A DNA stretch of 64,000 nucleotides, from positions 150,970,001 to 151,034,000 of the forward strand of contig NC_042999.1 of NCBI RefSeq assembly GCF_006345805.1. The letters are read 5' to 3'. Below, one piece after another: positions 5,510-50,000 of this stretch. The first letter of the stretch is position 1, and the number at the start of each line of letters is the position of its first letter. The position numbers and the translations under genes were made by a program. Source of the stretch: Octopus sinensis (taxonomy: Eukaryota). The notes below the pieces were generated by a model, which did not search any database, was not told the origin of the DNA, and saw nothing but the letters and a program-made list of their open reading frames with translations.

Positions 5510-7865
5510 TGTTGTCATCATCACCACCACCACCACCACCATATTCATCACTATCACCAACATCATAACTGTCGTCATCGCCACCCCCACCATCATCATT
5601 GTCATCATCATTACCACCACCATATTCACCACCACTACCACTACCATCATCATCATCATCATTGTCATCACCACCATCATTGTCATCATCATTACCACCA
5701 CCACCATATTCACCACCACTACCATCATCATCATCATTGTCATCACCACCATCATTGTCATCATCATTACCACCACCATATTCACCACCACTACCACTAC
5801 CATCATCATCATCATCATCATCACCACCATCATTGTCATCATCATTACCACCACCATATTCACCACCACTACCACTACCATCATCATCATCATCATTGTC
5901 ATCACCACCATCATTGTCATCATCATTACCACCACCATATTCACCACCACTACCACTACCATCATCATCATCATCATTGTCATCACCACCATCATTGTCA
6001 TCATCATTACCACCACCATATTCACCACCACTACCACTACCATCATCATCATCATCATTGTCATCACCACCATCATTGTCATCATCATTACCACCACCAT
6101 ATTCACCACCACTACCACTACCATCATCATCATCATCATTGTCATCACCACCATCATTGTCATCATCATTACCACCACCATATTCACTACCACTACCATC
6201 ATCATCATCATTGTCATCATCATTACCACCACCATATTCACCACCACTACCACTACCATCATCATCATCATTGTCATCACCACCATCATTGTCATCATCA
6301 TTACCACCACCATATTCACCACCACTACCATCATCATCATCATTGTCATCACCACCATCATTGTCATCATCATTACCACCACCATATTCACCACCACTAC
6401 CACTACCATCATCATCATCATTGTCATCACCACCATCATTGTCATCATCATTACCACCACCATATTCACCACCACTACCACTACCATCATCATCATCATT
6501 GTCATCACCACCATCATTGTCATCATCATTACCACCACCATATTCACCACCACTACCACTACCATCATCATCATCATTGTCATCACCACCATCATTGTCA
6601 TCATCATTACCACCACCATATTCACCACCACTACCACTACCATCATCATCATCATTGTCATCACCACCATCATTGTCATCATCATTACCACCACCATATT
6701 CACCACCACTACCACTACCATCATCATCATCATTGTCATCACCACCATCATTGTCATCATCATTACCACCACCATATTCACCACCACTACCACTACCATC
6801 ATCATCATCATTGTCATCACCACCATCATTGTCATCATCATTACCACCACCATATTCACCACCACTACCACTACCATCATCATCATCATTGTCATCACCA
6901 CCATCATTGTCATCATCATTACCACCACCATATTCACCACCACTACCACTACCATCATCATCATCATTGTCATCACCACCATCATTGTCATCATCATTAC
7001 CACCACCATATTCACCACCACTACCACTACCATCATCATCATCATTGTCATCACCACCATCATTGTCATCATCATTACCACCACCATATTCACCACCACT
7101 ACCACTACCATCATCATCATCATTGTCATCACCACCATCATTGTCATCATCATTACCACCACCATATTCACCACCACTACCACTACCATCATCATCATCA
7201 TCACCACCATCATTGTCATCATCATTACCACCACCATATTCACCACCACTACCACTACCATCATCATCATCATCATTGTCATCACCACCATCATTGTCAT
7301 CATCATTACCACCACCATATTCACCACCACTACCATCATCATCATCATTGTCATCACCACCATCATTGTCATCATCATTACCACCACCATATTCACCACC
7401 ACTACCACTACCATCATCATCATCATTGTCATCACCACCATCATTGTCATCATCATTACCACCACCATATTCACCACCACTACCACTACCATCATCATCA
7501 TCATTGTCATCACCACCATCATTGTCATCATCATTACCACCACCATATTCACCACCACTACCACTACCATCATCATCATCATTGTCATCACCACCATCAT
7601 TGTCATCATCATTACCACCACCATATTCACCACCACTACCACTACCATCATCATCATCATTGTCATCACCACCATCATTGTCATCATCATTACCACCACC
7701 ATATTCACCACCACTACCACTACCATCATCATCATCATTGTCATCACCACCATCATTGTCATCATCATTACCACCACCATATTCATTACCATAACCATAT
7801 TCACCACCACCACTTCCATCATCATCATCATCACAGCCATCACCATCACTATGATTATCATTATT
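5510..7865. repeat. Minisatellite, ~78-bp unit built from CAT/CAC/TAC triplets, roughly 28 copies
   Basis: Unit ccatattcaccaccactaccactaccatcatcatcatcattgtcatcaccaccatcattgtcatcatcattaccacca. Variants differ by whole triplets. Confidence 0.97.
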
Positions 7866-8751: not shown

Positions 8752-8906
8752 TAGGAGCGGCTGTGTGGTAAGTAGCTTGCTTACCAGCCATATAGTTCTG
8801 GGTTCAGTCCCACTGTGTGGCACCTTCGGTGTCTTCTACCATAGCCTCCAGCCGACCAGAGCCTTGTGAGTAGATTTGGTAGACAGAAACTGAAAGAAGC
8901 CCATTG

Positions 8907-8998
<92 letters not shown>

Positions 8999-9342
8999 CG
9001 TGCTCGCTTAACCAGCGGGGGGTGGCGTCATTCGAAGGCTAAAACAATGCGAACGCATTGTGACCAGCGATGTGTAACTACATCTGATGGACTGGTCGGT
9101 CACGTGATGATGACGTGATATATGTATGTGTGTGTGTGTGTCTGTATTGGTTCCCACCACCATCACTTGATAACCGATGTTGGCTTGTTTACATCTCTGT
9201 AACCTAGCGGTTCGGCAAAAGAGACTGATAGAATAAGTACTAGGCTTACAAAGAATAAGTCCTGGTGGGGTTGATTTGTTCGACTGAAGCCAGTGCTCCA
9301 GCCTGGCCGCAGTCAAATGACTGAAGAAAATAAGAGAATAAA
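8752..9342 (+). mobile_element. SINE family A with long (TA)n and an internal 125-bp insert
   Basis: Same consensus as 30443-30825 and 56076-56478. Confidence 0.85.
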
Positions 9343-10384: not shown

Positions 10385-10611
10385 TTTTATTCTTTTACTT
10401 GTTTCAGTCATTTGACTGCGGCCATGCTGGAGCACCACCTTTAATTGAGCAAATCAACCTCAGGACTTATTCTTTGTAAGCTTAGTACTTATTCTGTCGG
10501 TCTCTTTTTCCGAACCACTAAGTTACAGGGATGTAAAAACACCAGCATTGATTGTCAAGCAATGTTGCGGGGTGGGGGAACAAACATATTTATGTGTGTG
10601 TGTGTATGTGC

Positions 10612-10648
<37 letters not shown>

Positions 10649-10905
10649 ATACTGCCAGATCAAATTGGAGCCTGGTGCAGCCTCCTGGCTTCTCAGACCC
10701 CGGTCAAACCGTCCAACCCATGCTAGCATGGAAAACGAACATTAAACGATGATGATGATGCTGATGATATATATATATATATATATATACGACGAGCTTC
10801 TTTCAGTTTCCGTCTACTCACAAGGCTTCAGTCGGCCCGAGGCTATAGTAGAAGACACTTGTCCAAGATGACACACACAGTGGGACTGAACCCAGAACCA
10901 TGTGG
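10385..10905 (-). mobile_element. SINE family A, interrupted by a family D fragment and by the LINE; head resumes at about 14070-14090
   Basis: gaaccatgtgg at the left junction and ttaccacacagacactcc at the right junction. Confidence 0.85.
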
Positions 10906-13900
10906 CCTCTTACCATCTGGCCTCAGTTAAAGCTGGGCGGGAAAATCGGACCACCTTCCGAACACGCCCAGGCTTACCGTCCGATGTACGTCCGAAGCTA
11001 CGTGTAGTGGCTTCCCTGAATAGGAACTCAGCTCTACAGGAAAGCTTCAGTCTTCGGGAAGATGGACAAATCTGGAGATTTGTCAAGACTGCTGAAACGT
11101 AGAAGAGAGATACCAGCTGGTCTGAGTGCTCTCTACCCACAATAACTAAAAAGACTACAGCAACTCAGGGAAACTAAGCCAGAACAACCTGCCATCCTCT
11201 ACACACCATCATAAACTGCGAGCAGGGTACAAATTGTTGTCCTTAAATGCTCGCAGTTTATGCAACAAAATACATTTGTTCAACGCCTACGTCAGAAGTG
11301 TTGACCCTGACTTCATCACTGTCACGGAAACATGGGCGCATTCCTTACTCTGTGATGGGGTTTTCAACATTACGGGGTACAACCTCTTCCGTAAGGACCG
11401 CACTAACCGCCGTGGTGGTGGTGTGATGGTCTACGTTCGTTCAAATTTTTGGTAATTCCTTGTGCCGATTTGAACGAATCACAAGAAGAAGTTTTTTTCT
11501 GTGACGTGCGTATGACCATGTCAACACTCCTGCTTGGCGTTGTTTATCGTCCCCCAAGTTACCATCGGGACACACAGCTTTGCAATGTCCTCCGAGCTGC
11601 TGCCAGGAAAACAGCCACTTATGTGTTTATTGCAGGCGATTTCAATCATCCTGAGATCGATTGGGAGACCTTCCATTGGCCACAGAGTGCAAACGATTTT
11701 GTTGAGCTTGTGCTGGACTCAAACTGGTCACAAGTAGTCACCTCTCCAACAAGAGGTGACAACACCTTGGACCTGCTCTTCACCACAACTCCTGAAGCGG
11801 TTATCAATTGCACTACGGAGGAACCTCTAGGTGACTCTGATGATGCTATGATCATCGCCAATCTGGCTCTTGTGGGCAACAAAAACCTGAACCATCTCCA
11901 ATCTGCTTCCTTCGATTGGAAGAGAGCAGATTGGAACCTGTACCACACTGAACTACAGCACCCAAACTGGCGTGAATTCTACAACTCTGGAGATGTGAAT
12001 ACTATACTCCAGAGTATCCTGGACTCAATATGGGCAGCATGTGCAGCATCAGTGCCACGTAAACAAAAAAAGAAGAACCGCCCCAAAAGGGCAATTTGGG
12101 AAACTTCAGCGGTCCGACTTGCCAGGAGGGAACGTCGGACTGCTGAACGGGAATACAGGTTGCATAAATCAGACACCAACAGGAAGAAGCGGAATAAATC
12201 CTCCAACCATCTCAAGCAAGTGACAAAAAAAGCAGTGCTTGAATTTGAACAGTGCATAGCAGCCAATCCTGACAGCAAGGTTTTCTGGAAATATGTGCAC
12301 TCAAAGCAGAGACCTCACTCTCCAGTGGGCCCTCTTCGCAACCCTCACACAAACCAGATCACTGACGACCCCAAGGAATGCGCAGAACTCATTGCCGAGT
12401 GCTATGCAAACATATTCACTGTTGAAAGTCAAAATGTACCATCTTCACCATCACTAACAGCAAACTCCATAACAACTATGGAATTTACACCTGCAATGCT
12501 GCGACGTCACCTTCAAAATAAGCGCAACTATGCCTCCCCTGGTCTCGATGGAGTTACATACCTGCTTCTCAAACGTGGCAGGCACTTCCTTTTACACCAG
12601 CTTTCTATTTTCTTCCAGTACTGTCTCAACAATGGTGCTACTCCGGAGCAGTGGAAAACTGCCAGTGTCGTTCCTCTGTTCAAAAAGGGCGACCGCACAT
12701 CACCTGTCAACTATCACCCAGTCAGTCTCACTAGCTGTATTGCAAAACTGATGGAATCGTGTGTCAGAGAAACACTCTGGAACTTCTGGAGCTCTCACAG
12801 TCTCATCCGACCCTCACAATATGGATTTGTCCCTAACTCCAGCTGCAGTGACCAGCTTGTCGAGTTCCTTGAGGACATTACTCAGATTACTGACAGTGGC
12901 TCATGGGTGGATGTTGTCTACCTTGACTTTGCTAAGGCTTTCAACTCTGTGCCACACAAAAGGCTTATGGTGAAACTCTCTGCAATGGGTGTGGGGGATG
13001 ACCTTTTTAACTGGTTGAAATCCTTCATCCTCAGCCGAAAGGAGGTAGTCACAGTTCTAGGACAGCACTCTACACCATATGAGATGTCATCGGGTGTACC
13101 ACAGGGATCTGTCCTTGGTCCCCTCTTGTTTGTGGCATACATTAACGACATAGATGCCAATTTAAAGAATGCCACAGTATTGAAATATGCAGACGACATC
13201 AAGCTGTACCTTGAAATCAAGAGGACAGATCCTGATGTCTACAACTCTTTCCTGCAATCAGACCTAGACACAATGCAGCAATGGATCACAGACTGGCAAC
13301 TGAAACTGTCTGTGGACAAGTGTACCACCATGCATTTTGGGAGAAAAAACCCTGCGTTCACTTACTCCCTCCACAACACTGATATCAAGAAATCCTCTTG
13401 CAAGCGTGACCTAGGCATCACTGTCAGCAGTGATTTGCATTGGTCAAAGCATATCTCTAAGATTGTCAGGAAGGCCGAGGGTGTCTTGGCATCACTCAGC
13501 AGGTCTTTTGTTAGCCGCTCTCCAGCCATCTATTTAAAACTGTATACAGCTATGGTACGACCACACTTGGAATTCGCATCATCAGTTTGGAACCCCTATC
13601 TTGCACAGAACATTGACCTCCTGGAATCTGTCCAGAGACGTGCAACCAAACGCATACCCTCCATCAGACACCTACCATATTCTGAGCGCCTTGTTTCCCT
13701 GGGCATGGATTCACTGAAGCTCCGGCGTTTGGCGACTGACTTGGTAAACACCCACAAAGTTATCAACCACCTCACCAACAACAACACTGAACACCTTTTT
13801 GATCTCCATGTGTCTAACACACGTGGACATGCCTACAAAGTCAGAAAACAATACAGCTCCCATGACTTTCGGAAACATTTTTTCACGCTCAGAGTTGCTG

Positions 13901-14072
13901 AAGCATGGAATAAACTGCCTGCGTCAGTTGTTGACTGCCATGACACTGCATCTTTTAAGGCCCTCATGCTTTCCGAAATCCGCCGAAACTACACCTGATT
14001 ATATATACACTTTAGATGAGTTGTAGTGCACCTGAGCACTGTACACAATTATTATTATTATTATTATTATTA
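10906..14072 (+). mobile_element. 5'-truncated CR1-type LINE retrotransposon (possible ORF1 tail, APE endonuclease plus reverse transcriptase ORF2, short 3'UTR, (ATT)n tail)
   Basis: APE motifs LNARS, TETW, RGGGV, GDFN, LDL. RT motifs PGLDG, DFAKAF, GVPQGSVLGPLLF, YADD, DLGI, VRPHLEF, VQRRATK, FFTLRVAEAWNKLP. Tail (ATT)n at about 14048-14072. It interrupts a SINE. Confidence 0.95.
11234..13998 (+). pseudogene. LINE ORF2 (endonuclease-RT) split by a single -1 frame change at about 11443-11455
   Basis: ORF 11234-11455 holds the APE N-terminus; ORF 11449-13998 (849 aa) holds the remainder. The APE SDH motif reads SDD. Confidence 0.88.
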
Positions 14073-15013: not shown

Positions 15014-15053
<40 letters not shown>

Positions 15054-15733
15054 TTTATTTAATGAGTTTCACGTTCCCGTTTGCCGGACAGTTTTTGTTA
15101 ACAAAAACTGTCCAACGAACGGGAACATGAAACTCCGAGTAACAGGTTTTGTTGAATTTCTGCTGCTTTTAAATAAAGCATATTACTCTACCACTGGTAT
15201 TTGAGTACTCTTTTTTCCACTTGTTTCACATTTATTTGTTTACTCCGGTATATATATATATATATATATAATCATCATTGTTTAGCATCAGTTTCTCATG
15301 CTGGCTCAAGGTGGATGGTTTCACAGGAACTAGTAAAGCCAGGGGCCCACACCAAGCTCTAATTGTCTGTCCTGGCATGGTTTCTATGATTGGATGCCCT
15401 TCGTAACACCAACCACCTTTACAGAGCATCCTGGGTGCTTTTTATGTGGCACCAGCACCAGTGTTTTTTTTTATGAGGAAGCAGCACCCACACCAGCATG
15501 TTTCTATATGGCAGCCCTTCTGGCTTGCCAGCTCCTATCAAACTGTCCAACCCATGCCAGCATGAAAAATGGACATTAATTGATGATGATGATAACACTC
15601 ACATACATACACACACACACACATATGCACATATACATACTGTACATATATTTTTACAAACACACAAAAGCACAGACTTACATATATTTATACTTACACA
15701 ACACACACATATATACATACGTGCATACATGCT

Positions 15734-19110: not shown

Positions 19111-21760
19111 AGTTATGAGTTCACTGGTCTTGATGGGCCTACAAAGGACAAAGGCAATGCCTGTTTCTTCAGTTTTAGCAGGTGTAAAAAAACGAAAGAA
19201 ATAAAAACAAAAACCTATGGGTGTTTAAACAAAATAAACCTCTTCCATATCCAAGTCTGGGAGGACCTCTAAAGGTTAACAGTACTCTCCCTTATTTCTC
19301 TATTGTATAAAAATTTTTTATTACAAACATCCTAGATTATGCTGAGTTAGAAAACATCTGCTTGGTTTATAAATTTTTCTTTATTGAAAATTTTCGGTCC
19401 CTTAGCATACCCTCATGTTCTGTCGGCCCTTTTTGCTATTGTTTATTGCTGTTATAGCAGACTTCTTTCAGAACATTCTAGATATTGCACCCCCTTTCTA
19501 TTTGGATAAAAAAAAATAAACATATGCAGTGCTTGCTAGACTGATGTGTCAACCTGTACCCTGTTTTCTTCCATTAACTCAAGTTGCAAGTGTAAAACAT
19601 GTGAGAGAATGTTTGCATAGTTAAATGGCTTGCAAGAAAGAGTAGAGAAAATCTCCATGAAGCCACACCCTGATATTCAACTCTTTTGTTATTTACACTG
19701 CTTTTGTTGACTTACACTGCTTTTCCTTATTGTCATCATCATTTAATATTTATTTTCCATTCTAGCATAGGCTGGATGGTTTGCAAGAGCTGACAAGCCA
19801 GAGAGCTGCACCTAGCTCCAATTGTCTGTTCTGGCATGGTTTCTATAGCTGGATGCCCTTCCTAATGTCAGCCACTTTACAAAGTATACTGGGGGCTTTG
19901 TACATGGTACCAACATGAGTGCTTTATATGTGGCTCTGGTACAGGTGCTTTTTATGTGACACCAGCACAGGTGCTTTTTATGTGGCACCATATCTATGAC
20001 AACATGTCTATGAAGAAACTTTCTCTTAAACAAAAACTGCAGCATCATACCTTGCAGTGGTGTTTATAAACTGGCACTCCATCGGTTATGACAACAGGGG
20101 TTCCAGATAATCTGATCAGTGGAACAGCCTGCTCATGAAACTAACATGCAAGTGGCTGAGCACTCCACAGGCATTCACTCCCTTAATGTAGTTCTTAGGG
20201 AGATTCAGTGTGACTCAGAACGTGACAAAGCTGGCCTCTTTTGTATTACAAGTACAACTAATTTTTGCTAGCTGAGTGGACTGCAGCAATGTGAAATAAA
20301 GTATCTTGCTCAAGGAGACAACATGCTGCCAGGAATCGAACTCAATACTTTACAGTCATGAGGCAAGTATCCTAACCACTAAACCAGTACTTTGTAGTAA
20401 AGATTGTTTGCCAACATAACATGGCAGTCCCTTGTTTGAAAATATAAGGACACAGATTGTGTTGTATAGTCAGCTGGAGATGATGTCTCCTGGGGCTAAA
20501 TGACAGCAACATTTGTCCTAAACCAGGACTGCCATGTTATGTTGGCAAACAATCTTTACTACATGGGTTGATGTAATTGATTTACCCACTCACCCGAAAT
20601 TGCTGGCATTGTGCTACAATTTGAAACCATTATGATATTAATAATATTTAGTAAATAAATAATAGATTCAAAATATGCAATAAAAGTAGTTCTGTAATTT
20701 AGATATTATCAAAACCTCATGCTTAACATATGCGTATTGTTCAAATGCCAGAAGCTGCAGTTTTTTGACTGGGAATCATCCCTTTAAATATATTTCAGAG
20801 CTAGGTAAAATAAATTTGTGTGAAAAGTAACAACTAGAACAACATACACAGAATTTCTCCATAATTGTAGCTTATCACTGTCACACATTCATTTCACTTC
20901 TGAATTAATAATATCATATACTATTCCAATTTAAAATTAGAAGGGTTTGAATTTGTCTTTCTTTTCAGAGTTGTTAAAATAAATACCAGTGGTGTATTGA
21001 GGTAATTTGGTTGCTATCTGTTGTCTTCTTCAACAATTTGGTCTTGTGCCTAGGTAAAAATATTAATAGAGTCCATATTAAGAAAACACCAATTCATATT
21101 CCATTTCCTTGACTAAGATATTTAATTCCCAGCTGTCCATTCCTCAAACTGCTAATAGGAACCATAATGGTTGGCACACAAGTGGGAGTACCATACCACT
21201 TCCCTATTTTGACACTTAACATAATATGAACAATATAGTTTCCAACTAGCAATAACCATGCCTCGGATAACCCTCATTGGCTATGGTACTGTCTCTGTGC
21301 TGAGTCCAAATTTTCCTTTGATATTGCACAAAGTAATAGGAAATCATTTCAGCTTTTTCTTTTATAAGTTAGTATAAAATAAGGAAGTATAGTACCCAAG
21401 ATCTCTGTAGATCTTTTTTGTTAAGTTATCCTGAAATATGTAGGACCACCAAGGGTTTATAATATTTCTGTGACACATTCAGTAGAAAAGCATCTTCTGT
21501 ATGTGCTGGTATTTAAGACACGCTCTGGCATAAGAAACACTCCTATTTTACATGTAGATTAAAAGAAAAAAAGAAGTAATGCGTTCCCTTATATACTTAT
21601 TGAAAGATGTTTTAAAGTGGTTTTGTAGGGGAGAATGTATGATTCAGTGTATTTAAATACAACTCTATGACAGCATACTGGAATAAAGTATGAAATCATA
21701 AACTTATCATAAATAAATTATGGTGTATAAATATGATATTACAGTTTTATCTTCTTTTAG

Positions 21761-28732: not shown

Positions 28733-29080
28733 TAATAGACAGGCCTAAGGCAGAGAAATTTGCTACAAGGGAAGCCAATCTTCTCTAACGAACTCTTTGA
28801 TGTAACAGAGTCGATGCTGGGATGTGTTTTTATTTTGTTATCGTTCAGTAAACAAAGCTGACCTGGGAGCGAAGGCGTCATGGCTTTTAGGGAAAGCAAT
28901 GCAAAGACGGAATTAAATGAGTGTAAACAAGTGACAAGTGTCTGAACAGATGAATTAGAGGGTTTGGTTAGAAGAAGGAAAGAAGAGAAGGGGAACTTGC
29001 TCATTCCAGTTAAAGAGCTCTCTCTGCTATGTAGAATGTGTAAAATTATATATATATATATATATATACATATATATACA

Positions 29081-29112
<32 letters not shown>

Positions 29113-29526
29113 TATATGTATTGATAATAAGGAGAGTGAAGAATTTGAACATTCAAACTATATAAACAGGAAGTTTGAATGTTCAAATTCTTCATTCTCC
29201 ATATTATCAATGTTGTACTTTACATGCTAAGTAGCCAGGAAAAAAGTGTGACATCGGATCGGAATTAAAGGAAATATATATATATTTATAAAAATTTGTG
29301 CTGCATCTCATTTATATGGAAAAAAAGTCTGGGTAGAAAATGCTAAAATAATTTTATAAAAAACATTTCAGTGCCGGTTTCAGTCATTGAGACATTTTCA
29401 ACTGTAAGTATGGAAAACAATTAAATTTTGGAAAAATTAAAAGAAAAGTTTTTTAAAAGAATATTTGCATAGTATTCAAATACAAGGGGCATTTTCTTTG
29501 TTTCAGCCTGTCTCTGTCTCCTTTAC

Positions 29527-30332: not shown

Positions 30333-32559
30333 AGCTAAAAGTCCTCAATCATCAATTTTGCAGTTGCTGGCACTCTGTCAGTTACGATGACAAAGGTTCC
30401 TACTGATCCAATCAATGGAACAGACTGCTTGTAAAATTAACGAGCAGGAGTGGCTGTGTGGTAAGTAGCTTGCTTACCAACCACACGGTTCTGGGTTCAG
30501 TCCCAATGCGTGGTACCTTGGGTAAGTGTCTTCTACTATAGCCTTGGGCCGACCAAAGCCTTGTGAGTGGATTTGGTAGACGGAAACTGAAAGAAACCTG
30601 TCGTATATATATATATATATATGTATGTGTGTCTGTGTTTGTCCCCTCAACATCGCTTGACAACTGATCCTGGTATGTTTACATCCCCGTTACTTAGCAG
30701 TTCGGCAAAAGACACCGATAGAATAAGTACTATGGCTTACAAAGAATAAGTCCTGGGGTCGATTTGCTTGACTAAAAGGCGGTGCTCCAGCATGGCCACA
30801 GTCAAATGACTGAAACAAGTAAAAAAGTAAGTGGTTGAGTACTCCACTGTCTCATGTTCTCTTAACCCTTTGAGCCTGTAACACTGGTTTACTGAATGGC
30901 TTATTTTTCTCTATACTGTAGCACTGGTGGAGTGCCAGGCATATGGTAAAATAAAATTCAGGAGGTCAGGGCTAAAAGGGTTAATGTAGTTTGGGAGATT
31001 CAGTGTGACACAGAATGTGACAAGGCCCTTTGAAAACTCAATTTGGCAGCTAATTGCACTGGAGCAATGTGAAATAAAGTGTCTTGTTCAAGGACTCAAA
31101 ACGACACCAAGACTTGAACTCACAACCTTAGAATCACAAGCTGAATACCCTAACCACTAAGTCTTATACCTTCACAATTTTGCTGTTAGATATATATGTA
31201 GATTAAAACATTCTGTAAGATTAACAGTCCTCCCACAAGAATTTCTATTAATCACATTTAAGGTGTGCTGCTTTCTCTCATGGGGGCCAGTCTCCTTGTC
31301 TCAGTTATTCTTATTTGTTAGTTAGAGAAGACAAGAAACTAATGATGTGGGTTACTTTAAATCCTTTTCCCTTCCTTTGTGCTCTTAAGGGATGGTCATT
31401 GATGGAAATAAGATTGATGTAGGTGTATTGTTTGTAGCCACTTCCATTTTAAAAATAAATTTCATATTCTACATTATTTTGTTAGTCTTAGTTTAACATC
31501 TCTCTTGCTATATATATATATATATATATATATATAGCTACATCCAGGCGTGGTAATGTGGGAGTTTCCTTCCCAGCCCCATGGTTCCAGGCTCATTTTA
31601 CTTCCTGATAGTCTGGTTGATACTACGACACTGTGCTATTATTTAGTCTTAATTAAATATCCGCCTATACATAGCTACAGATAGTTGTGGCTGCGTGGTA
31701 AAAAGTTTGCTTCCCAATCACACGGATCTGGTTTCAGTGCCACTGCATGGCACCTTGGGCAAGTGTCTTCTAGTATAGCCATGGGCTGACCAAACCTTGT
31801 GAATGGATTTAGTAGATGGAAATTGAAAGAAACTCACCCATCCATCCATCCACCCACCACTCAATGAATCTATCCATCCATCAGTTATTGAATCAATCAA
31901 TGAAGCCATCCATCCATCCATCCATCCCTCCATCCATTCATCATCCATCCATCAATGAATCAGTCAGTGAATCCATCCATCAATCAATGAATCAATAAAT
32001 CCATCCATCCATCAGTCAATGAATCAATTAATGAATCCATCCATCCATCCATCAATCAAAGAATCAATTAATGAATCCATCCATCCATCCATCTATGTAT
32101 GTCTATCTTTGTTAGAAATCAACTCCTTCCTCAGAGGAAGAATTTAAATAATTGAAAACAGAAGAGAACATGTATGTGTGTGTGTGTGTATCTATGTGTA
32201 TATCTTTGTGTTTGTCCCCCACCACCGTTTGACAATAACTGGTGTTAGTGTGTTTACATCCCCATGACTTAGCAGTTTGGTTTGAAACTGACAATAAATG
32301 TCGGGCTTAAAATATAAAAGGTGATCAGTTTAGTTAAAATCTTTGGAGGCAGTGCCCCACCATGGCCATGGTTCATTGACTGAAACAAGTGAATTATACA
32401 TGTCGTGGCTGTGTGGCAAGAAGCTTGCTTCCCAACCACATGGTTCCGGGTTCAGTCCCACTACATGGTACCTTAGGCAAGAGTCTTTCTGCTATAGCCT
32501 CAGGCTGACCAAAGCCTTGTAAGTAGATTTGATAGACGGAAACTGAAAGAAGCCCATCC

Positions 32560-32619
<60 letters not shown>

Positions 32620-32925
32620 TTCAAAATGCGATAAAATAAAATTAATTATTATAGCTGGTGTTTCTAGCACAGGCCATATATTATTCATATATAAGTACAT
32701 TAAAGGCGAAGTATGTACTAGAAACACAGAAGCTTGATAAATTTAGTGAAATGAAAATAAAAACATTTACTAACTCTGTTTCATCTTAGACTGCAGTTTC
32801 GCCTTTTTCAGCAATAAAAATAATATTTATTTACTCAGGTAGGCTCTTCAGTAAGATTCCTGTTATTATGAAACGCAACTCGATAGACACATGTGCGTCT
32901 ACTAAATTGCTCTTTCTAAATTGCT

Positions 32926-32981
<56 letters not shown>

Positions 32982-33175
32982 TTATATGTGTGTGTGTCCC
33001 ACCATTGCTTGACAACTGATGATGGTGTATTTATGCCCCCGAAACCTATCAGTTTGACAAAAGAGACCAATAGATTAAGTACTAGGCTTACAAAGAATAA
33101 TTCCTTGGGTTGATTTGTTCAACTAAAGGCGGTGCTCCAGTATGACCGCAGTTAAATGACTGAAACGTGTAAAAG

Positions 33176-47000: not shown

Positions 47001-50000
47001 TAGGTGAAAAAAATATAGGGGTTTCTTATACATGGATAGTAATTATAATCCCTTATAAAACCGTTTTTCCAAATTTTAAGCCCCCAAAATTAGGGGGTTC
47101 CTTATACACATTAAAATATGGTACAAAAACCCCGGTGCTCAAGTGATACATACCTTATCAATCCCAAATGGATGAAAGGCAAGGTTGACCCTACTGGAAT
47201 TTGAACTCAGAATGTAAAGACAGTGGAAATGCTGCTAAGCATTTTGCTTGGCATCCTAGCAATTCTCCCAACTCACTGCCTTTTGCCACTGTCCTTAACC
47301 CTTTTGATTCCAACCCAGCTGAAACCGCCTCTGGCTCTGTAATACAAATGTCTTGTTTTCATAAGTTTTGAATTAAGCTCTTCCACCAAACCTTAGTCAC
47401 AAGTAATGTTCCTTACACTAGCTTAATGATAACTAAGTTATTTTACTAAATTCTTTGTTATATTCAAAATTAATTGAAAAACACAGAGCATCTCAACAGA
47501 AATATGGCAACAAAAGGGTTAACAAATTATTAATTTAACCTTTTCAATACCAACCTAGCTGAAACCGCCTCTGGCTCTGTAGTACAAATGTCTTGTTTTC
47601 ATAAGTTCTGAATTAAAATCTTCCACCAGACCTTGGTCACAATTTACGTTCCTAATACTTGTCTTTGTCACGCCCTACTTGGCGCATCCTAGCACAAGAC
47701 GCCCGGGCGACTGCCCGAGTTGCTAGTATCCTGAACCGGCCCTGATGGGAACGTAAAGAAGCCTACATCGGTTGTCATAGCAATGACTCCATCCTGAAAG
47801 GATGAAAAACAATGCTGGCTCCAACTGAATTAGAACTCAAAATATGCCCAGTGTTCTACCGATTCTCTCATCTTGCCTGGTGTTATACCGATTCTTTCAA
47901 CTCACTGCCCTTAATCACCATACTATAATGATAACTAAGTTATTTTACTAAATTGTTTGTTATATTTAAAATTAATTGAAAGAAAGACAGAGCATCTCAA
48001 CAGAAATATGGTGACAAAAGGGTTAAAATATATAATAGAGAAACAAATCTTAACCCTTTTGACACCAACCTGGCTGAAACCACTTCTGGTTCTGTAGTAC
48101 AAATGTCTTGTTTTCATAAGTTTTGAATTAAAATCTTCCACCAAACCCTTGTTACAATTTATGTTCATAGCACTAGCTTAATGATAACTAAATTATTTTA
48201 CTAAATTCTTTGTAATGTTTAAAATTAATTAAAAGAAACACAAAGCATCTCAGCAGAAATATGGCAACGAAAGGGTTAATGACAATACTGATTTCTTAAC
48301 AGAGACTCGTTTTGTGTCAAATTTTGAGAGAAAAAGTTTAGTTGATACTATCAACCCCAGTACATAACTGGTATTTATCGATATTGAAAGGATGGAAAGC
48401 TAACTTGGCCTCAACCCGGTACTAATCTTGGCCTCATGGGCTATTTGGCAAATAGTTATGCGTCGATCTTCCAAAATGGCAGCCTCAACTTGACGGACAG
48501 ATGCCTCATCAATGGCAGAAGGGGGGGGGGGGCGACCAGATCTGGGAGCTGTTTCCACAGGGTTCTGACCATGTTTGAATTCACGATGCCAGCATTTTAC
48601 AAGGTCATATGATGGGGCATCATCACCATAAGTTACTTTAATTTCATCAAAAGTCTCCCATAGTGTGCGTCCTTTCAAATACAAGAACCGGATCACTGCT
48701 CGACACTCAACAGGCTCCATTTCACACTTGACTCAGTTCAAACACCTGTAAATCAGAAACCATAATTAGTTCAGAGCTGTAATTTGCCACTTAATCTATA
48801 GAGATATAAATAATTGCACATGCAAAATTTCAGCTAGATCAAACAACTGTAAGTGGGTCAGGGGCATTACTTATTGAACGCCCCTCGTACACTGGCACTC
48901 TGTTGTTTACGATGATGAGGGTTCCAGTTGATCTGAATAACGGAACAGCTTGCTTGTGAAATTAATGTGCAAAAACACACATATATACACATATACATAC
49001 ACAAAAACACATATAATGGGCTTCCTCATAGTTTGCATCTACTAAATTCACTCACAAGAAAATGACCAACCTTTAGTAAAAGTCACTTGGCCAAGGTGCC
49101 ATGCAGTGAGATTGAACCTGAAAGTACGTTGTCACAAAACCAAGCTTCTTCACCATGCCAGTGCCTGATTATTTATTTTTCTCTTTTGTTCTCCCTTTAC
49201 TTCCAGATGGCTGCGATTACGTTTCAGTATGATTCCTTTTGTTACAATTATCATTGAACCCTTAACTGAATGTCTACCACTGGGTCTTTATGGATCGTGG
49301 AGCATCCATCACTTTCTTGGTGTTAACCCTTATTATATATTTTCATTCCACATCTTAGGATGGTTGATTATAGATTATTTACAATTAAAGAATATACAGG
49401 TGAGTACATTAATTTCATTTTAATTATAAAAATATACAGGTGAGTGAGTACTTGTTGTCTTCATACATGTCCTCATTGTTTTAATATTCACTTTTCTATA
49501 TAAGGTTTCCATTCTTCATAACCAAACACATTTTACATCATCATCCAATGTTTTGTCTCTGAAAATTTTTTTTTTTTGGTGAACTGAGAGGCTGGTTTAT
49601 TAGAGACCCACCTCCATAATGTCACTTCTCTCTTTTTTTTATTTTTTGGACCAGGAGGAGATAGTGAGGTAATAGGGCCTTGCTTCGGTTAAGAGTAAAC
49701 ATGATAAATTTTGTCCTATTGTCCTATGCCATTGAGGTAGATCTATTGGCTGGATCTACCTCAATGGCATAGCAACCGAGGTAGGCAGGTGCAGCCCACC
49801 CCAACCTTTGGGCTGGTTGGTGCCCATTCTCCCTTGCTATCATGAGGCTTTTTCGTAGCTGGATTTTCTATGGAGAGCATGCCCCTGCTTACCCCCAACC
49901 TCAGTTCCTAGACATGGGTGGTCCTGAGACCGAGGCCTCTACCACGATTTTTAAGAAATGTGGTGGAAAACAAGCAATTAGAAATGAATAACACTGCTTG

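Follow-up and report, generated by a model that had tools for sequence, protein, structure and literature searches.

A type I hammerhead motif in a (TA)n-inserted, multi-copy repeat of Octopus sinensis, probably the truncated end of a Penelope-like element

Described hammerhead-bearing elements and the Octopus locus

Hammerhead ribozymes with a palindromic helix III have been described in the pseudo-LTRs of EN+ Penelope-like elements (PLEs) of Drosophila, rotifers, shrimp and mosquito (Cervera & de la Pena 2014, PMC4209133). In the same source, the usual metazoan type I form has helices I, II and III of 6, 4 and 2 bp, the last capped by a palindromic tetraloop, while the 'min-HHR' has no helix III or loop 3, a long helix II and an extra base between positions 9 and 10.1. 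Hydra-clade PLEs prefer (TA)n targets and carry a sense hammerhead about 100 to 200 nt from their 3' end; PLEs may also have a tail of 30-40 bp, and their target duplications are unreadable (Craig et al. 2021, PMC8557442). Hydra-1_Obim, from Octopus bimaculoides, is a TA-targeting, hammerhead-bearing PLE, whose letters, as given in that source, differ from those of the present repeat. In O. vulgaris, PLEs account for 6.83% and fall into 190 families (PMC13282606). The Poseidon element PAc of Anolis initiates internally, and its hammerhead is protein-assisted and proved dispensable for in vitro insertion (Frangieh et al. 2024, PMC11167929). Retrozymes are the subject of two further papers (Cervera & de la Pena 2020, PMC7229834; Li, Clavereau & Pollet 2026, preprint 10.64898/2026.07.22.740005).

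The stretch analysed here, called the window, comprises 64 kb of O. sinensis contig NC_042999.1. Near its middle, a hammerhead motif lies on the minus strand of an insert placed between two (TA)n tracts. The features of the locus are as follows.

32402..32565, plus strand: 5' half of the host SINE, with a tRNA-like head by eye (blastn: 11 other places in the window, about 150 bp, 76-88%)
32566..32610, plus strand: left (TA)n target tract (TRF)
32611..32928, minus strand (the structured strand): insert, a non-coding and apparently truncated copy of a multi-copy family (contig alignments; fold z)
32653..32734, minus strand: predicted long hairpin 3' of the ribozyme, near the 3' end of the insertion (z -4.91; plus strand -2.49)
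32783..32857, minus strand: type I hammerhead ribozyme motif (descriptor parse and Rfam RF00163)
32790..32797, minus strand: palindromic helix III, ACUGCAGU, predicted by cofolding to form an 8-bp intermolecular helix in a double hammerhead
32870..32915, minus strand: predicted hairpin 5' of the ribozyme (z -5.30)
32902..32929, plus strand: 14-bp tandem duplication at the putative 5' truncation point (TRF)
about 32929..32987, plus strand: right (TA)n target tract (TRF)
32988..33175, plus strand: 3' half of the host SINE (blastn: 10 other places in the window, 70-81%)

The motif has in common with the EN+ PLE hammerheads of PMC4209133 its type I architecture, the G10.1-C11.1 pair, a palindromic helix III and a predicted dimer; those hammerheads are mostly single dispersed motifs from truncated copies, as appears to be the case here. 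With Hydra-clade PLEs the repeat shares (TA)n targets, a subterminal sense hammerhead and copies ending at shared sites. The helix III of that clade, however, mostly has 3-4 bp and a loop of 1-3 nt, and the present one differs from all motifs of the clade in File S2 of PMC8557442. Metazoan non-LTR retrozymes, as described in the two papers above, resemble the insert in being non-coding, low in GC, highly folded and a few hundred bases long, with a type I hammerhead, and mobilisation by PLEs is probable for both. They are defined by tandem repeats and circular RNA, neither of which was seen for the present copy, which is partial. As for PAc, the AT-rich target, the putative internal start of reverse transcription and the occurrence of copies with and without a 3' extension are common to both; in PAc the start site lacks homology to the target and the hammerhead contains the beginning of the ORF, whereas here the target matches over 4 nt and the ribozyme is followed by no frame. 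The frame from an AUG after the cut site was considered and rejected, as it meets a stop after four codons.

Layout and predicted folding of the hammerhead motif

On the minus strand, the motif extends from 32857 to 32783, and cleavage is predicted between 32789 and 32788, after the C at 32789 (C17). Helix I (6 bp) is made of 32857-32852 and 32788-32783, the core CUGAAGA occupies 32851-32845, and helix II (4 bp, 32844-32841 with 32804-32801) encloses 36 nt. The GAAA of the core (32800-32797) is followed by C-UGCA-GU (32796-32790), in which a helix III of 2 bp is closed by UGCA, so that GUC stands at the predicted cut. An earlier reading, made from the sequence alone, had proposed this core and these stems, and both the exact parse and Rfam bear it out: the match to RF00163 (Hammerhead_1) scores 36.3 bits on a 1-kb stretch, above the gathering threshold of 34 (E 3e-7), and CUGANGA, GAAA, NUH and the three helices are all present. 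The same sequence-only reading had called the hammerhead minimal. An intact type I hammerhead it is, but not a min-HHR as defined in PMC4209133: helix III is present, no extra base follows A9, and helix II is short with a long insert. It also differs from the PLE hammerheads of that paper in having no ORF linked to it here. Judging by its helix sizes and short palindromic helix III, set against the description in that source, it has the usual metazoan type I layout.

Four descriptors, run on both strands, found no other type I match in the 64 kb of the window. To estimate chance occurrence, order-3 Markov sequence trained on the window was generated (38.4 Mb); a strict descriptor with 6 + 4 Watson-Crick pairs had 0 matches in it, and a loose one 37 (0.06 per 64 kb). 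A fast Rfam scan of the whole window missed the hammerhead and gave just a U4-like sequence. The latter, at 21160-21306 on the minus strand, resembles U4 snRNA (61 bits) with a degenerate 3' part, and is probably a pseudogene.

Predictions differ for one and two copies of the motif. The active fold of the monomer is predicted at -8.3 kcal/mol, 5.9 above the minimum of -14.2 kcal/mol, a fold that has the core paired to loop III and would be inactive; the probability of helix III in the monomer is below 0.001. For two copies, the cofold minimum is a double hammerhead (-33.5 kcal/mol), the 8-nt palindrome being paired between the molecules with probabilities of 0.58 to 0.70. At the level of prediction, this agrees with the earlier proposal that the palindromic stem III permits cleavage as a dimer. 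Among Xenopus hammerhead dimers that had been predicted, 8 of 9 did not cleave (10.64898/2026.07.22.740005). The 36-nt 'loop' II is predicted to contain an inner AU-rich hairpin. An on/off switch, in which GUUUC at 32874-32870 would pair with the core as in a minimum-energy fold, was considered and dropped because most relatives differ at 32873. Over the whole insert, the minus strand has a fold z of -4.09 with three hairpins; as in non-LTR retrozymes, it would be a non-coding, low-GC, highly self-paired RNA.

The insert, its SINE setting and its relatives

The insert is 318 bp long with 30% GC and lacks a long frame, in keeping with the non-coding element of about 320 bp recognised earlier. 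Its placement within the (TA)n of a SINE was also recognised correctly: TA tracts lie on both sides and SINE halves beyond them, so that the insert interrupts the TA tract inside a SINE, the halves of which occur 10 to 13 more times in the window. No published description of this SINE was found in the literature. At the same spot, 8 of the 11 other SINE copies have the simple tract alone, and 3 hold unrelated sequence. In the copies at 8759-9325, 10392-10905 and 31684-32399, the microsatellite inside the SINE either contains an unrelated insert or is expanded as (CCAT)n.

The further suggestion that SINE-borne microsatellites serve as special landing sites fared less well. It relates to one case, while (TA)n targeting is general for PLEs according to PMC8557442, a second TA-flanked PLE-like fragment (15053-15248) lies outside this SINE, and the SINE copies with something at the same spot carry sequence unrelated to the insert. 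Since 10 of the 33 TA tracts in the window lie within this SINE (two of the ten flank the insert), landing in one of them needs no special rule.

The fragment at 15053-15248 (plus strand) consists of a long hairpin followed by a hammerhead 3' core, helix III and cut-site letters, the letters being as in Hydra-2_aJap and Hydra-2_aMil of File S2 (PMC8557442) and standing 107 nt from the end of this fragment. Its hammerhead 5' core is not intact. From its letters, it is likely to be the truncated end of another PLE family. Another TA-flanked segment, at 29069-29526, has a long near-perfect inverted repeat close to its start.

No second copy of the ribozyme-bearing element was found in the 64-kb window. 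In public sequencing data, parts of the stretch were contained in 20 of the 24 runs listed, from 8 studies with three organism labels; none was listed as RNA. Contigs of four runs (X3, X5, X6 and X9) were aligned to 32600-32940 at 80% likeness, and 68, 521, 175 and 58 contigs, respectively, aligned. Contig depths ranged from below 10 to above 1,000, and summed depths reached 550,000, depth being here a sum over contigs and not a copy number. The ribozyme repeat is a multi-copy family with subfamilies, as the sequence-only reading had surmised in assigning it to a mobile, ribozyme-bearing family of the Penelope or retrozyme kind. The depth profile of X9, which is guessed to be an RNA run, follows that of the DNA runs, and this run therefore gives no information on expression. 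Exact 20- and 25-base motifs of the element had 0 matches in metagenome contigs. Core-pattern matches at 3 loci in viral contigs were set aside as chance, having no matching helices and no likeness in the flanks.

Summed depth peaked at 32732-32767 in all four runs; compared with the peak, it was about 4 to 11 times lower over the hammerhead and 13 to 87 times lower at 32876-32911 in each of them. All four runs have pieces that stop matching at 32919, with other sequence beyond, and loose ends lie behind 32919 in X5 and X6. Past this 5' end, record 8 of X3 continues for at least 71 nt, whereas in the window a repeat of the last bases follows and then TA. At the opposite end, the left tract finishes with ATAT, four letters that the family itself has at this place: loose ends are found before 32607 in X5, X6 and X9, where at least 10, 5 and 3 contigs continue with family sequence, and one X3 contig (depth 304) extends about 100 nt past the 3' junction. 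Because relatives continue past both ends, the 318 bp are not the unit of the family, contrary to what had been supposed.

Diverged copies, with 5-7 other letters, join TA at the same left junction (records 9 and 10 of X5, record 17 of X6); other junctions were with TA at 32621 and, in X9, with (GAT)n at 32703. The window copy, these three records and the end at 32621 amount to a (TA)n insertion bias of the PLE type. Head-to-tail tandem units are absent at this locus, and no head-to-tail joint was seen among the joints listed for the four runs, where a joint through sequence absent from this copy would not map. For differences, the alignment tables list 40 rows of 47; for loose ends, 24 of 85; and for pieces, 32 of 824.

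Among the difference rows listed, variable positions numbered 0 of 31 in the core, helix I and helix III, compared to 38 of 277 elsewhere (P = 0.013); against the near neighbourhood, core conservation had P = 0.058, and P would be 0.14 if two of the 7 further rows fell in the core. The fourth pair of helix II (32841) is lost in 10-88% of depth, a share that varies with the run, and a one-sided C-to-U wobble occurs in this helix at 32843. On the 3' strand of helix I, one variant is compatible with a wobble, and one deletion touches the last pair. Two-sided changes in helices I or II were not found among the 40 difference rows listed. In one contig, the hammerhead core is decayed. In the 3' hairpin, the pairs 32723/32662 and 32717/32668 vary on both sides in such a way that pairing can persist, these changes being assigned to one X3 subfamily through matching depth values alone; several other variants break pairs.

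Origin of the insert

With a probability that we put at about 0.58, the insert is a truncated copy of a hammerhead-bearing repeat, from the 3'-terminal (pseudo-LTR) region of a PLE, that arrived by target-primed reverse transcription. On the plus strand, the order is TA, the 4-nt overlap, the 3' part of the family and the hammerhead, after which the sequence breaks off raggedly with a slip; this is the order expected if a nick in TA had primed the reverse transcription of an RNA of the minus strand, and from the polarity of truncation we infer that the hammerhead strand would be the template strand. The cleavage site is 178 nt from the 3' junction, a position near the 3' end of the presumed template strand like that of PLE hammerheads. 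A GIY-YIG nuclease of the PLE may have nicked the TA tract, and the nicked end, matching ATAT over 4 nt, may have primed synthesis inside the RNA at 32610. Synthesis would then have run through the hammerhead and stopped near 32919, a short slip duplicating the last bases. The ribozyme is predicted to cut transcripts that are tandem or precursors, either as a double hammerhead or assisted by protein; the lone copy of the window, without a partner there, would cut poorly by itself.

What favours the truncated PLE end is the gradient of depth from 3' to 5', which, together with the extensions past both ends, fits 5' truncation with an optional 3' tail. Divergence of the 5' part between subfamilies could, however, also give such a gradient, and the extension of about 100 nt, seen in one contig, exceeds the 30-40 bp tail. 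Nor is an RT or GIY-YIG frame linked to the repeat, the loose ends showing 30 letters each: among the longest 148 of 258 non-repetitive frames of the window there was no PLE-type domain, and the sole RT was of an APE-type LINE (11407-13998). Priming by ATAT is at odds with the PLE studied in vitro, which initiated at a site non-homologous to the target (PMC11167929). The helix sizes and the strongly folded minus strand suit retrozymes equally, and the insert could, somewhat less probably, be a partial monomer of a non-autonomous non-LTR retrozyme, that is, of a longer non-coding unit that would form tandem arrays elsewhere, be transcribed, cut by double hammerheads and made circular, and return to (TA)n through a PLE enzyme acting in trans. 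Its helices have the sizes usual for metazoan type I hammerheads of retrozymes, its GC content is low, and family sequence on both sides would be expected of a piece taken from a circular or tandem template; dispersed monomers are common in such families (10.64898/2026.07.22.740005), and retrozymes are already known from a mollusc (PMC7229834). The steep gradient is nevertheless unlike arrays of whole monomers, no joint linking the two ends was among those listed for the four runs, a neighbouring copy is lacking in the 64 kb, and no loop-loop contact is obvious by eye in the 36-nt loop II. The two readings share a mechanism, since the preprint derives retrozymes from PLE terminal repeats and places both in a single lineage. 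A more specific version, in which a young retrozyme present in several octopus species forms a three-hairpin circular RNA, borrows the Penelope enzyme and pairs an internal AUAU with nicked (TA)n, strikes us as rather unlikely; if true, it would be the first cephalopod retrozyme found in print and would give a sequence-level account of TA targeting, unlike the homology-free start of PAc.

It is improbable that a carrier other than a PLE (a LINE, Helitron or DNA transposon) moves the unit with the hammerhead as a passenger. An APE-RT LINE frame and a mariner fragment do occur in the window, and target-site duplications would be unreadable inside TA, but the insert has ragged ends and lacks both terminal inverted repeats and a poly(A) or simple-repeat tail that would be its own, and a subterminal sense hammerhead combined with TA targeting is what has been published for PLEs. 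Least credible of all is a chance or single-copy motif, or a ribozyme domesticated by the host at this locus: the want of another copy in the window speaks for it and nothing else does, against the chance tests, the position in a SINE microsatellite and the hundreds of aligned contigs, by which the single-copy version is refuted.

Returning to the truncated PLE end, it would most likely represent a new family within a well-described class, TA targeting and a 3' hammerhead having already been published for PLEs. PMC8557442 was the only literature on point for octopus together with the hammerhead ribozyme and retrozyme or Penelope; a search for short sequence motifs of the element or of the SINE found none in the supplementary material of PMC8557442, of PMC13282606 (in a file that does not include the O. 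vulgaris repeat library) and of PMC4209133 (files other than file 1), where line breaks may mask matches. The interest of the locus is modest: with an intact hammerhead, a high-copy family and readable junctions, it lends itself to testing whether PLE-type (TA)n insertion uses microhomology priming. It also offers material for asking if PLE terminal repeats gave rise to the retrozymes of molluscs, an origin that has been proposed for those of frogs.

Other features of the window include a LINE at about 11150-13998 (plus strand), with APE endonuclease and RT, made of an open frame of 863 codons and an upstream frame with the start of the endonuclease; the closest database proteins are 52-81% identical. 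A fragment of a mariner transposase with a Mos1-type HTH (Pfam HTH_48, E 3e-10) lies at 48403-48732 on the minus strand. Finally, positions 5513-7849 hold a 2.3-kb array of a 78-bp CAC/CAT-rich unit, with 97% matches over 20 copies, that is open in five frames.
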